Shown here one piece after another: positions 1 through 64,000 of a stretch of DNA of 64,000 nucleotides; positions within the stretch are counted from its first letter, which is position 1, and every line of letters begins with the position of its first letter. A program made the position numbers and the translations under genes. A model generated the notes under the pieces. That model searched no databases, was not told where the DNA came from, and saw only the letters and a program-made list of their open reading frames with translations. The stretch comes from Octopus vulgaris. Its lineage: Eukaryota. The stretch spans positions 68,324,001 through 68,388,000 of the forward strand of contig OX597823.1 in assembly GCA_951406725.2 (NCBI GenBank), written 5' to 3'.

Positions 1-685
1 GAAAATATATGATATGAATACTAGAAAATGAATTAGGAGTAGGTGTCAGCATTTGATTAATGATTTAAGCTTGTTTATATTTTGCTATGAAATATGCTTC
101 TTTATTAATTCGTTGTTGTTCTGTCATATTTTCTGCATATTGAAATAGTGGAAAAAGTTTAAAATTTGGTTGCTGAGTTCTTGTACATCTATCTAAACAC
201 TCACTGAATTGATCTGTTCTACTGTCTGGGTTATTTGCTACCTATGAACTATCATGCCTTTTCTGCATGACCTGATAGTTTGACCAATGCAGTTTTTATC
301 ACACTTATGACAAAGTTTTCCAAAAGGATTGAGAAGTTGTGTCTTAATTGAAAAATTTGCCCATTTTTGAAATGGAACTTGCAGCCTTCAAATATATTGA
401 TACACAGTCCATAATTTGATCTTCCACATTTTCTAACTGTTGGGATTTTTGTGATATTGGTAGGTAGTTGGGCACTTGTTAACAGCATTTTCAATGAATG
501 TGGAGGCTGTTTTTTTTATTTTTAATTATTTTATGTTTTACTAAGATTCTCCTCAATCTAGGACCATGGTTTAACAAGAGTGAATTTTGCTTGATCAAAC
601 TAAAGGCCTGTTTTCTTCAGACTGTGAATTGAGATGTATGATAAAATATTTGTTCCTGTTTTGGTTTTCACGGTTCTAAGTTTTG
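1..685 (-). mobile_element. Degenerate Neptune-like PLE (linker + GIY-YIG), left arm of an inverted pair
   Basis: Minus-strand peptides KIIK.., LLTSAQL..KCGRSNYGLC..EGCKFHFKNGQIF, and SECLDRC..PNFKLFPLFQY..KEAYFIAKY. Confidence 0.7.
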
Positions 686-688
686 CTT

Positions 689-1420
689 AAAAAATGGGCA
701 AATTTTTAAAATGAAAAATAACTTTCATGCATTTTAAAAACTTAATTTATGTTATAAAATGTGAGTGTACTAAAAACTGTGTTAACCAAACTGGCATGTC
801 ACTGAGAATATGCATGACAACAAATACAAGATCTGAGCCCTAGAAAAATCTGACTCAGTGAGCATTTAGATAAATGAATAGGAATTCAGCAACCAGATTT
901 TAAACATTTTTTTTCTCTATACCATTGTGCAGAAAATATGAAAGTACAACAAATAATAAACTTACATTATTGTAAAATATGAACCAAGATTATATCATTA
1001 AGCAAATACTGACCACTTTTCTAATTCTTTATCTAATATTCATAAAACGTATTTCCCCCTTATATTTTTGAGTAATTAAAAGTACAAAAATTCACAATAT
1101 AAATGAAGTTTAAATAATTAACCAAATATTGACACGATTTTCTAATTTTTATATGATATATTTCCACATATTTTTGAATGAATAAAAGTACAAAAATCTA
1201 CAGGGGTTAATTTAGATATGATAACATATACAATATTACTTCCTTTCTTATACTCTGTGAGTCCATGATGAGGATACGTCCAACACCGGTGGTATATATT
1301 AAATGAAAGCTTGTAACAAGCCATTACACTTGTATATTGCAATGAATAGCTTCTGTAAATACATCAGAACATTAAATATATAACATAGCATTTAGTATAC
1401 TGTACAAGTAAAAAATACAA
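689..1420 (+). mobile_element. Degenerate Neptune-like PLE GIY-YIG and 3' UTR, right arm of the inverted pair
   Basis: KNLIYVIKCECTKNCVNQTG..LSEHLDK..QQPDFK. 689-1000 is a diverged reverse complement of 60-370. Decayed hammerhead-like motif TGATGA-GGA-TACG-TCC-AACA-CCGGT at 1266-1290. Confidence 0.65.
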
Positions 1421-1439
1421 TATATATTTATATATCTTC

Positions 1440-60945: not shown

Positions 60946-61135
60946 TTTGAAAACGTTATGAAAAAATACCGTTAAAAATGAAGGGAAATTACTCTGTTAT
61001 AACTCTGCTTTGCCTGCGTACTTATACATCGCTCGCATTTTTCGTCATAAAAATTATATAAAAATACATAAAAAATATATAAAAATATATAAAAATATAT
61101 AAAATCTTCTTGGGACATAACACAGAAAGCATGTT

Positions 61136-63025
61136 CTATCCGTTTTCTTTAGGGGACCAAAAACGTAACAGAAATTTAGTCACATGTGGGCATGATCCGA
61201 AAAGTTCTGTCCTTGTATTTAGACATGTGGTAGGGTCTAAGCTGCTTTTCCAGATAAGCCATCTCTCCATGTCGCATAAACCGCACCTTCCGCTGCCGTT
61301 AGTATAGGGCTTACATCTGGCCAAAATCTTCCATTGTATGTTATAATCGACACCTTTATCTCTTAAAGACCAAATATGATTGGATAATTGTGTCGCTTTT
61401 CTTTTGTTCCAGTGCCTAAAGCTCAAAGTGTGGTTATTGAACCTGGCCTTGAAATTACCCTCTGTCAGGCCCACGTATTTCTTCGTCAAAACGGTGTCTT
61501 TAGTGGTTATAGAGTTTACGGTAGCCTCATATATGATGGTCTTGGACATGCAAGCTCCATTTAGCGGGCACAATTCTTTATTCCTGCATGAACAGCTGTT
61601 TTCTTCTTGTGTTTTTTGTATGTTATGATTGATTATGTTTTTAAAATTGGTAGTTGAACTAAAACTAATTTTTAAATTGTGTCTATTGAAGAGTTTCCTA
61701 TAAGCATGGTTAACTGGAAAATGTCTATCTATCAGTGCTAGGAAATATTTACCTATATTGAAGGCCACCTCGGGTGAGTAAGGGGGCGTAAACCAGATGA
61801 CCTTCCTATTTCTATTATTCCTTTTCTTTATTGTTGGGCTGGTGATAGGTGTATATTTTATTTTTTCGCTAAAACCACTATCTTTTAAAGCTTTATTATA
61901 AACTGGGGCAACGCTATTGAAGATGTCCTCATTAGATGAGAGGCTAGAAATCCTCTTACTAATATTTTTAACTAAATTTTTGAATACTATAGGGGGATGG
62001 CATGAACCTACATTAATATAACTTAGTCTATCATTGGGCTTCCTATAAGGCTTATAAATATTATTATTAAGATCTAAGGAAACGTCTAAGAAATTGACAA
62101 CCGTCAGGTTAGTGTCTATAGTTATACTAAGTCCGAAGTGTTTCATTAACTGGATAATATCCTTCCTAAAACGATCTTGTGCTGGTCCATTTGTATTAGC
62201 TGTTAAGGCGAGGGCATCATCTTTGTAGATGGCGAAATGTACGTTAGGGAATGTCTTACTGAAGGTATCTAGGAGAAAGAGTCCAATTAGATCACAGATG
62301 CCTGCCCCATCATATGAACCCATGCTCACATCGAAAGCGCCCTCCGTGTCGGTGTTTTTTACCCACTTTGCATTCTCACTGAAAAGTAATGTCTTTCTAG
62401 CATGGAAGATTATATCCTTATCATTGGTACTAATTTCTATGAAGTCACTAGCGAAGATTAGGGCTTTATCTAGCAGTTCTTTAGAGATAGAGGCATAAAA
62501 ATCAACAATATCGAATTGTGTAAACCTCGCTTTTTTCTTATTCTTAATAGCTTTAAACCAGTCTACGACTTCTATACTATTGGACCATTGCACTAGCCTA
62601 GTATCGGTCTTAATTTTCGTATTTATTTTATCTAAAATTTCTTTGCTAATAATCCCTAGTTCTGACTTGGCTGGGTTGATAAGCCTACATTTAGGATTGG
62701 AAAGGAAGTTTTCTTTGTGGTCTTTAATAGTAATAAAGGCCTCTTTTTGGGGGAGGGTTTCTATTTTTTTATCTAATTTAAGTTTAGCGGCGATGACGCT
62801 AGCTTCTTTATTAATTTCGTTATATGTCTGTGCCCTAGCCTTAGTATAATTATTAATGATGCTGTTGTGTAAGAGTTGTGTGTATTTGCTGTTATCTACC
62901 AGGTATAAGTTCTTGGTTTTATCCGAAAAAAGTGCTTTTTTCTTGGAGCTTTTTATATGATCAATATCTTTCTTCAATTTATGTTGGAAAATGTTAAAAG
63001 ACTTACGAAACTTTATTTTGCTCAT
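61136..63025 (-). CDS. Penelope-like element ORF: reverse transcriptase + C-terminal GIY-YIG endonuclease (Naiad-like; probably 5'-truncated)
   Basis: 629-aa stop-free ORF. RT motifs: DKTKNLY, PKCRLINPAKSELG, FTQFDIVDFYASI, FDVSMGSYDGA, IYKDDAL, FLDVSLDL, YRKPND..HPP. Then CSCRNKELCPLNGAC, IIYEATV..YVGLTEGNFKARFNNH (GIY-YIG), CGLC..E, LNTRTE..CPH. The frame stays open upstream (KADLLKI) up to the inversion junction near 63046. Confidence 0.95.
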   Translation of the reverse strand: MSKIKFRKSFNIFQHKLKKDIDHIKSSKKKALFSDKTKNLYLVDNSKYTQLLHNSIINNYTKARAQTYNEINKEASVIAAKLKLDKKIETLPQKEAFITIKDHKENFLSNPKCRLINPAKSELGIISKEILDKINTKIKTDTRLVQWSNSIEVVDWFKAIKNKKKARFTQFDIVDFYASISKELLDKALIFASDFIEISTNDKDIIFHARKTLLFSENAKWVKNTDTEGAFDVSMGSYDGAGICDLIGLFLLDTFSKTFPNVHFAIYKDDALALTANTNGPAQDRFRKDIIQLMKHFGLSITIDTNLTVVNFLDVSLDLNNNIYKPYRKPNDRLSYINVGSCHPPIVFKNLVKNISKRISSLSSNEDIFNSVAPVYNKALKDSGFSEKIKYTPITSPTIKKRNNRNRKVIWFTPPYSPEVAFNIGKYFLALIDRHFPVNHAYRKLFNRHNLKISFSSTTNFKNIINHNIQKTQEENSCSCRNKELCPLNGACMSKTIIYEATVNSITTKDTVLTKKYVGLTEGNFKARFNNHTLSFRHWNKRKATQLSNHIWSLRDKGVDYNIQWKILARCKPYTNGSGRCGLCDMERWLIWKSSLDPTTCLNTRTELFGSCPHVTKFLLRFWSPKENG

Positions 63026-63045
63026 GATCTTCAGCAGGTCCGCTT

Positions 63046-64000
63046 TTAGACGTTTCCTTAGATCTTAATAATAATATTTATAAGCCTTATAGGAAGCCCA
63101 ATGATAGACTAAGTTATATTAATGTAGGTTCATGCCATCCCCCTATAGTATTCAAAAATTTAGTTAAAAATATTAGTAAGAGGATTTCTAGCCTCTCATC
63201 TAATGAGGACATCTTCAATAGCGTTGCCCCAGTTTATAATAAAGCTTTAAAAGATAGTGGTTTTAGCGAAAAAATAAAATATACACCTATCACCAGCCCA
63301 ACAATAAAGAAAAGGAATAATAGAAATAGGAAGGTCATCTGGTTTACGCCCCCTTACTCACCCGAGGTGGCCTTCAATATAGGTAAATATTTCCTAGCAC
63401 TGATAGATAGACATTTTCCAGTTAACCATGCTTATAGGAAACTCTTCAATAGACACAATTTAAAAATTAGTTTTAGTTCAACTACCAATTTTAAAAACAT
63501 AATCAATCATAACATACAAAAAACACAAGAAGAAAACAGCTGTTCATGCAGGAATAAAGAATTGTGCCCGCTAAATGGAGCTTGCATGTCCAAGACCATC
63601 ATATATGAGGCTACCGTAAACTCTATAACCACTAAAGACACCGTTTTGACGAAGAAATACGTGGGCCTGACAGAGGGTAATTTCAAGGCCAGGTTCAATA
63701 ACCACACTTTGAGCTTTAGGCACTGGAACAAAAGAAAAGCGACACAATTATCCAATCATATTTGGTCTTTAAGAGATAAAGGTGTCGATTATAACATACA
63801 ATGGAAGATTTTGGCCAGATGTAAGCCCTATACTAACGGCAGCGGAAGGTGCGGTTTATGCGACATGGAGAGATGGCTTATCTGGAAAAGCAGCTTAGAC
63901 CCTACCACATGTCTAAATACAAGGACAGAACTTTTCGGATCATGCCCACATGTGACTAAATTTCTGTTACGTTTTTGGTCCCCTAAAGAAAACGGATAGA
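63046..64000 (+). mobile_element. Inverted 5'-truncated second copy of the same PLE (RT C-terminal region + GIY-YIG), running off the window end
   Basis: Reverse complement of 61135-62089 with no net indel (63046 pairs with 62089, 63999 with 61136). ORF 63367-63999 matches the C-terminal 210 codons of the minus ORF. Confidence 0.95.

Follow-up and report, generated by a model that had tools for sequence, protein, structure and literature searches.

Head-to-head pairs of Penelope-like elements (PLEs) recur in a 64,000-nucleotide stretch of the Octopus vulgaris genome (contig OX597823.1 of assembly GCA_951406725.2, positions 68,324,001 to 68,388,000; hereafter, the window). In such a pair, two copies truncated at their 5′ ends are joined centrally, and their 3′ ends point outward. 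In a young family with a copy in the window, one arm ends at the end of the element unit (site A), and the other ends 68 nt into the next unit (site B), which places a 68-nt tail on one side of the insertion. This use of A by one arm and B by the other is an almost strict one-of-two rule in the insertions counted here. Two-ended priming, in which reverse transcription starts from both ends of the cut target on either one RNA or two, is its probable cause.

Two end sites in head-to-head insertions

The young pair lies at the right-hand edge of the window and comprises the following features.

60662..60851: (TA)n-rich target tract
60845..63045, minus strand: left arm, 5′-truncated PLE, unit positions 390-2589; ends at site A into (TA)n, with no tail
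60878..60934, minus strand: predicted type I hammerhead-like motif with a minimal stem III, approximately 40 nt upstream of site A (descriptor scan)
61136..63045, minus strand: reverse transcriptase (RT) and C-terminal GIY-YIG frame, 5′-truncated, with Hydra-clade motifs
63046..64000, plus strand: right arm, unit positions 1345-2589; continues beyond the window to 64290 and then into the 68-nt tail (site B, to 64358) and (TA)n (locus L031)

The left arm is 99.8% identical to the family unit, the two arms are identical over 955 bp, and the junction at 63045/63046 is blunt. The unit, defined by tandem copies elsewhere, is 2589 bp long and contains an intact frame of 717 aa from stop to stop; the RT and nuclease motifs are kept in 120 aligned sequences. 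Read from its motifs rather than from a tree, the family is a recently active PLE with Hydra-clade motifs: RWK, DKT, a CxCX5C linker, and CxxC and CxH near the C terminus are present and CCHH is absent, as in the motif list in the available text of PMC8557442, and the unit is shorter than 3 kb and inserts into (TA)n. General PLE traits are also found, namely, tandem or partial-tandem units that form pseudo-long terminal repeats (pseudo-LTRs), 5′ truncation, and the 68-nt tail, with arms of up to at least four units. Profile matches are weak; Pfam gives GIY-YIG with an E value of 0.09 on the window piece and no match on the full protein, and a PDB sequence search gave no match. The hammerhead-like motif is the single hit of the descriptor scan in the window, and an Rfam hammerhead is absent among the 150 matches listed of 298 in the window, the listed ones being sub-threshold microRNA matches on TA repeats.

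The genome searched comprises 2.8 Gb in 227 contigs, in which a 32-mer near the 3′ end of the young family has 2332 exact matches. The loci of the first 97 of the 100 matches listed, in order along C1, were grouped by script into 62 clusters (38 head-to-head, 24 solo, and 0 tail-to-tail); L100 proved to be one pair split by later insertions, so that the count by hand is 39 head-to-head and 22 solo insertions of 61. The head-to-head share is 0.64 (95% confidence interval, 0.51-0.76), or 0.61 after correction for the double detection chance of pairs. All 19 insertions in a second sample, which is biased to long young copies, are head-to-head. A reading of the window made from its sequence alone had taken the inverted dimer to be the default product across lineages and ages. 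That proposal stands for the young family, the only one with an unbiased share, in which head-to-head pairs are not a minority and are not matched by tail-to-tail pairs (39 versus 0 of 61). The sequence-only reading also placed the outer ends typically in (TA)n, which agrees with 55 of 57 young-family pairs, in which both outer ends lie in TA runs; the same is true of 12 of the 22 solos. Twelve solo copies carry the tail, and 10 do not.

Exactly one tail was observed in each of the 38 scripted head-to-head clusters of the ordered sample, three of which have an incomplete partner arm (L052, L053, and L092), and in 18 of the 19 long young insertions. Genome-wide, exact end patterns match 969 A ends and 757 B ends; the B pattern is the longer of the two. 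Neighboring ends within 20 kb were paired from 100 A and 84 B ends listed, with 16 B entries beyond the A list dropped. Among these listed ends, 55 of 55 neighboring pairs are minus/plus and A-B (P = 2e-17), as are all 35 of the pairs outside the first sample.

A second family encodes a protein of 775 aa and has a tail of approximately 35 nt. Pfam RVT_1 and GIY-YIG matches are above the cutoff, and the protein contains GxKF, DKG, a CX2-5CxxC motif upstream of GIY-YIG, two Cys residues inside GIY-YIG, and a C-terminal nuclease. These motifs, read against clade descriptions and not placed on a tree, identify the family as Neptune-like. It has 157 A ends and 89 B ends; with 100 A and 61 B ends listed and 28 B entries dropped likewise, the pairs among the listed ends are 27 AB, 2 AA, 1 BB, and 0 tail-to-tail (27/30 AB; P = 1e-6). 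On fetching, the BB case consists of short copies 5.4 kb apart with no junction. A junction is present in 8 of 20 fetched long copies of this family, some of the stretches being too short to reach it. Both RNA sites, A and B, end in a 3- to 4-nt TA-compatible stretch. Folding of the A/B regions gave z values of -1.67 in the young family, where A sits at the base of a hairpin loop, and +1.28 in the Neptune-like family, and showed no structure common to both.

Several further observations concern these families. Arms of several tandem units (up to at least 4, >11 kb) with differing haplotypes per unit occur at L037-L038, L080-L081, and L041. A rolling circle on one monomer circle is disfavored as the sole source of such arms because units within an insertion differ, and the differing units fit read-through of mixed tandem sources better. 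A 5′-truncation hot spot at unit positions 2464-2498, just upstream of the hammerhead motif, yields mini-palindromes of approximately 270 bp (L058, L059, L069, L077, L079, L095, and others); it may mark a transcript start or a short nonautonomous RNA. Short arm pieces at L036 and L070 start no more than 1-2 bases from the predicted hammerhead cleavage site (unit positions 2548-2549). Two further recently active Neptune-like PLE families are represented by near-identical copies (L124, L125, and L177-L196).

Arm relationships and a probable priming mechanism

Arm geometry was assessed in 52 young pairs, five complex pairs (L092, L052, L047, L036, and L072) having been dropped. The arms differ by more than 30 nt in 37 of the 52, as anticipated by the view that truncation points usually differ, and the arm with the tail exceeds its partner in 19, falls short of it in 18, and matches it to within 30 nt in 15. 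Among 25 selected AB pairs of the second family, the tail arm is longer in 14, shorter in 8, and within the threshold in 3. One cDNA copying itself cannot yield a pair in which the tail is on the shorter arm and missing from the longer one. Arm lengths are coupled in the young family, with 12 short/short, 23 long/long, and 0 mixed pairs of 35; two tail-only exceptions occur in the biased long-copy set. Outside the short-arm hot spot, truncation points lie no more than 50 nt apart in 6 of 38 pairs versus 1.4 expected (P = 0.002), and near-equal truncation is found in 5 of 25 pairs of the second family versus 1.3 expected (P = 0.006). The differences between truncation points center near zero and not at one tail length, which is expected if both cDNAs ran off one RNA end.

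Junctions were resolved in 53 of 57 pairs, and 34 of them are free of inserts. Microhomology of at least 2 nt is present at 21 of these 34 junctions versus 18% expected, and the other 19 junctions contain 1-30 extra or mismatched bases, several of which are copied from nearby element sequence. An interrupted-TA stretch of 15-17 nt is repeated on both sides in 3 of 51 flank pairs, the rest being uninformative.

The arms of a pair also carry the same alleles. In the 52 young pairs, 98 of 111 recurrent-variant comparisons are shared between arms; 2000 permutations gave 83% discordance (minimum, 54%). At seven common sites, the arms agree in 32 of 34 informative insertions versus 65% discordant expected. 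The corresponding test in the second family has low power (5 comparisons, 0 discordant). Among seven old pairs, six have arms that resemble each other no more than they resemble relatives, all being about equally diverged, and the pair at 51874 is the exception; thus, gene conversion is not the reason for the shared alleles. The arm-to-arm and arm-to-relative comparisons therefore uphold the earlier expectation that both arms belong to one subfamily and one age.

The layout, the A/B rule, the shared alleles, the microhomology, and the three target duplications are properties of the finished insertions, and the steps that lead to them may be as follows. The GIY-YIG nuclease of the element would nick both strands of a (TA)n tract approximately 12-17 nt apart, and because the tract is self-complementary, both ends would present the same TA primer. 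One end would start at A and the other at B, and both cDNAs would be extended toward the 5′ end of the RNA, the downstream one displacing the other. PLE RTs are not known to have RNase H. Synthesis would end randomly, where the RNA shared by both cDNAs is broken, or at the hot spot just 5′ of the hammerhead, which is a likely transcript start. The two cDNA 3′ ends would then anneal via 1- to 6-nt microhomology, often with short templated inserts, and host repair would fill in; a single extended end would give a solo copy with or without the tail. This course, in which a staggered endonuclease cut supplies two 3′ ends that both prime on one RNA and the cDNAs are joined, seems to us to have slightly better than an even chance of being correct. 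A model in which both ends of a broken (TA)n tract prime reverse transcription had already been drawn from the window; it fits, with the added constraint, missed there, that the two ends use different start sites.

Several points weigh against priming of both ends on one RNA. The evidence consists of finished genomic products, and no intermediate was seen. The A/B rule has exceptions: L047 has no tail, L043 and L045 have a tail-only arm opposite a long arm, and in the Neptune-like family, L223 proved to be a genuine AA pair, and L224 is also AA but contains a gap of 155 nt. In most pairs, the arms are not of near-equal length, and the distance thresholds were picked after inspection of the data (10, 50, and 55 nt were tried in the second family). 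The arms of L057 and L041 are of different haplotypes (2/34), and a single insertion can contain tandem units that differ (M037, M080, and L041); at least some events therefore used more than one template or underwent later exchange. The arms of the pair at 51874-52240 differ in their likeness to relatives, the left arm being 86% like the closest relatives and the right arm, with its extension, 99% like L124. In the available text of PMC11167929, the start site does not differ between the strands and shows no homology to the cut DNA; no A/B pairing emerges from that assay, which is bulk and unpaired, and its outcome is not explained by the course proposed here. When contigs of four sequencing runs, which may come from other individuals, were compared with 62750-63340, none of the listed pieces bridged the window junction at 63045/63046; 1355 unlisted pieces may include one that does. 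The junction class itself exists outside this assembly: contigs of run X1 contain another copy's strand-switch joint, from 62853 to 63260 at a depth of 48, and an X19 contig switches from the antisense open reading frame to the sense hammerhead region. Support from these contigs thus extends to the class of junction, in other copies, and not to the junction of the window.

Two-ended priming could also act on two RNAs of the same locus in one particle, with an asymmetric complex forcing one A and one B start. This arrangement would account for the A/B rule, the shared alleles, and the non-nested arms without strand displacement, would permit the 2 of 34 discordant insertions, and accords with the dimer predicted for a Poseidon PLE in the available text of PMC11167929. 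We regard it as rather unlikely, because, in two families, near-equal truncations outside the hot spot occur 4 times as often as under permutation, mixing is rare although several haplotypes are active, and there is no simple reason for the two RNAs to use different sites. A self-priming fold-back, in which a template, either cDNA or antisense, folds on itself and copying turns it into a hairpin (the model of PMC3846280) that the endonuclease resolves with a one-sided tail (the origin of the tail given in PMC8557442), predicts shared alleles, microhomology, small loops, and palindromic junction centers (e.g., L077 and L068), and the short templated inserts at L033, M037, and L075 resemble brief snap-backs. 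Such a copy would have to lie within its template, but in 18 of 52 and 8 of 25 pairs it is the arm without the tail that is longer; a template copied through to its end should give AA or BB pairs, which were seen in 0 of 55 and 3 of 30 cases. Rescue of the fold-back requires a 68-nt staggered cut that chooses either strand equally, and both limits of the tail are RT start sites in vitro according to the text available from PMC11167929. Fold-back is accordingly improbable as the source of these pairs.

PLEs accumulate in TA tracts, and separate neighboring insertions do exist (L072, L083, and L225), from which pairs might be built by independent insertion into the same tract and later rearrangement or gene conversion. 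Independent insertion predicts tail-to-tail pairs and random tail status, which were seen at zero and near zero, respectively, as well as TA between the arms and mixed haplotypes, whereas the junctions are direct; conversion is opposed by the old pairs, which are not homogenized. The chance that the pairs arose in this way is very small. Smaller still, to the point of being negligible, is the chance of an assembly or library fold-back artifact. The identity of the youngest arms and the unbridged window junction would suit an artifact, but the arms differ at both ends and in their flanks, the arms of old pairs show 72-90% likeness and one of them has taken up later insertions, and strand-switch joints occur in the X1 and X19 contigs.

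Priming of both ends on one RNA, if it is the rule, may have a wider meaning. Across the Hydra and Neptune clades, the normal PLE cycle might be symmetric double-ended priming, with one RNA copied twice by two RT active sites, one per DNA end, and with the tail, the inverted pseudo-LTR, and the solo copies as outcomes of one reaction. PLEs would then generate palindromes on a genome scale, and these could provide much of the long double-stranded RNA (dsRNA) and A-to-I editing substrate of the host. We offer this generalization tentatively, with somewhat less than an even chance of being right.

The 13 inverted pairs of the window

Approximately 13 inverted pairs had been claimed in the window from the sequence alone, and all 13 are real. 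In each interval, the microsatellite-masked inverted-repeat score exceeds that of every shuffle (30 shuffles per interval longer than 2 kb and 200 otherwise; 5 split points for the real sequence and 1 for shuffles), and the direct-orientation control is near null. The smallest margins are those of 5856-5978 (score of 39 versus a null maximum of 25) and 49541-49751 (41 versus 25). Self-BLAST places local inverted repeats at the claimed positions with and without microsatellite masking and detected no comparable local direct repeats in the window. With hand-set limits and internal repeats included, the 13 pairs cover approximately 26% of the window. The 12 pairs other than the young one are as follows.

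1..1358: old Neptune-like pair; the left arm begins approximately 180 bp upstream of the window
5856..5978: 35-bp inverted repeat; single weak relative; no link to a PLE protein or hammerhead found
6579..10721: old pair with arms of approximately 2 kb, broken by TA expansions and a later repeat; GIY-YIG remnants at 8664-8284 (minus) and 9035-9322 (plus)
13836..14556: inverted pair whose hammerhead-like core points outward; only the right arm is extended, by approximately 137 nt
19139..21500: old pair akin to the young family's protein; RT/endonuclease remnants at 20465-19672 (minus) and 20578-21129 (plus) (tblastn E values of 9e-12 and 5e-7)
23995..24740: dispersed repeat present as an inverted pair; only the left arm has the family extension (approximately 145 nt); likely PLE end
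25044..26403: abundant noncoding (TA)n-associated repeat present as an inverted pair; arms 90% alike; likely PLE-derived
27287..28939: old Neptune-like pair; GIY-YIG at 28082-27778 (minus) and 28100-28507 (plus)
49541..49840: short head-to-head pair; extension of approximately 89 nt on the right arm only; relatives with a textbook type I hammerhead upstream, in the outward sense
50885..51240: short head-to-head pair; only the right arm has the family extension (approximately 91-97 nt)
51874..52309: Neptune-like family with GIY-YIG (L124 and L125), its 3′ ends arranged head-to-head; only the right arm carries the extension
56725..56908: short head-to-head pair from an older subfamily of the young element; left-arm tail at 56725-56789 (83-89% to the unit end plus tail)

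Seven of the 13 pairs are head-to-head PLEs by protein or direct-family evidence, and five (those at 13835, 24140, 25037, 49541, and 50885) are likely PLE ends. The repeats at 13835, 49541, and 50885 are dispersed and have outward-pointing hammerhead cores in relatives or in the window, and all seven fetched relatives of the 50885 pair are palindromic too. The 24140 and 25037 repeats are dispersed and noncoding, with 831 and 5356 candidates, respectively; they gave no protein match, and their hammerhead-like cores are weak or degenerate. The family extension is on one side only in six older window pairs, which adds to the support for the A/B rule. The outward polarity proposed for the pairs, with 5′-truncated ends in the center, is confirmed by protein, minus on the left and plus on the right, at 6610-10690, 19120-21510, 26990-29150, and 60850-64000. 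It is weak for 1-1420, where the PLE protein matches have E values of 4e-4 on the left and 0.16 on the right; the relatives L156 and L164 of this pair match better.

Other repeats lie among and near these pairs. In the left arm at 51874-52037, the hammerhead core is replaced by other sequence. Small hairpins or inverted repeats beyond the 13 occur at 1841-2082, 21759-21806, 29889-29931, 42808-42884, 45132-45169, 48934-49033, and 49071-49277, and some of them may be further minimal pairs. Upstream of the window, L142 contains another PLE protein remnant (689-922) and another inverted pair (1682-2405; coordinates within L142). A repeat of approximately 400 bp that resembles a short interspersed element is present in both orientations, with copies 65-81% alike, at 3166-3577, 11269-11440, 39832-40251, 42568-42798, 43296-43586, 46798-47092, 49315-50071, 53282-53882, 54478-54886, and 56913-57428. 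A second dispersed repeat family, which is partly tandem, occupies 2087-2334, 18373-18489, 43646-44153, and 47861-48157. A degenerate (TA)n array of 1.3 kb lies at 12115-13452, and the TA arrays of the window give many spurious long frames and microRNA matches.

Relation to known systems

The layout, the one-sided tail, and the (TA)n targeting of these insertions have already been published (PMC3846280 and PMC8557442, in the parts available); the counted A/B rule and the same-template evidence are what the present analysis adds. PMC3846280 describes head-to-head as the most frequent arrangement, in which one inverted pseudo-LTR bears the tail, and explains it by an antisense template that primes itself; PMC8557442 describes an inverted truncated copy, a tail of 30-40 bp often at one end, and a (TA)n bias. 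As far as these texts go, the inverted pseudo-LTR PLEs resemble the octopus insertions in the head-to-head 5′-truncated copy, partial tandems, tail at one end, (TA)n, and target duplications. They differ in that the tail there is optional, or present "often" at one end, and 30-40 bp in length, whereas here it follows an almost strict one-of-two rule with genome-wide counts and is 68 nt long, and in that the non-nested arms found here speak against fold-back. A literature search that did not reach most subscription papers, including early Penelope reviews, or supplements turned up no paper in which the A/B rule or two-ended priming is set out for PLEs.

The origin of the inverted insertions and of the one-sided tail matters because the available text of PMC8557442 calls the cycle undefined and the sole in vitro study (PMC11167929) does not deal with inversions. 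With approximately 2300 near-identical 3′ ends in the young family, the A/B rule and the same-template evidence separate the models and make the question directly testable. In the in vitro study, on a Poseidon PLE of Anolis, both target strands are cut and extended, and two RNA start sites bound the tail, so that the start sites, the extension of both strands, and the AT-rich target are alike in the two systems. The main text of that study does not discuss inverted products, proposes ordinary second-strand synthesis, and reports no strand difference in start site and no homology to the primer. In the octopus insertions, by contrast, each end has its own site, and a TA-compatible sequence of 3-4 nt is present at both. 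The young family shares with the Hydra clade all of the motifs listed in the available part of PMC8557442, a length of <3 kb, a predicted hammerhead motif, and (TA)n targets. That clade is described there mostly from cnidarians, with a few molluscs and other aquatic invertebrates.

An octopus has an exceptionally high share of near-perfect dsRNA-forming loci and of hyper-editing, according to the part available of PMC5625713, in which no repeat annotation was used. PLE palindromes are a candidate source of such dsRNA, although this consequence is plausible only. Head-to-head PLE pairs can also be misfiled as miniature inverted-repeat transposable elements or DNA transposons. If two-ended priming is correct, the RT group closest to telomerase would have a way of retrotransposing that dispenses with ordinary second-strand synthesis.

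In L1 twin priming, both target ends prime, and the inverted junction shows microhomology; the second primer lands at a variable internal site, which gives adjacent, barely overlapping pieces. The octopus insertions are alike in the probable priming at both ends and in their junction microhomology. They differ in their fixed start sites 68 nt apart and in arms that share the same 3′ region in 52 of 57 pairs, and L1-type twin priming is ruled out as their mechanism because both arms copy that same region. An L1-like exception is L052, in which an inverted piece of unit positions 1111-1379 lies beside an arm of 1361-2589.

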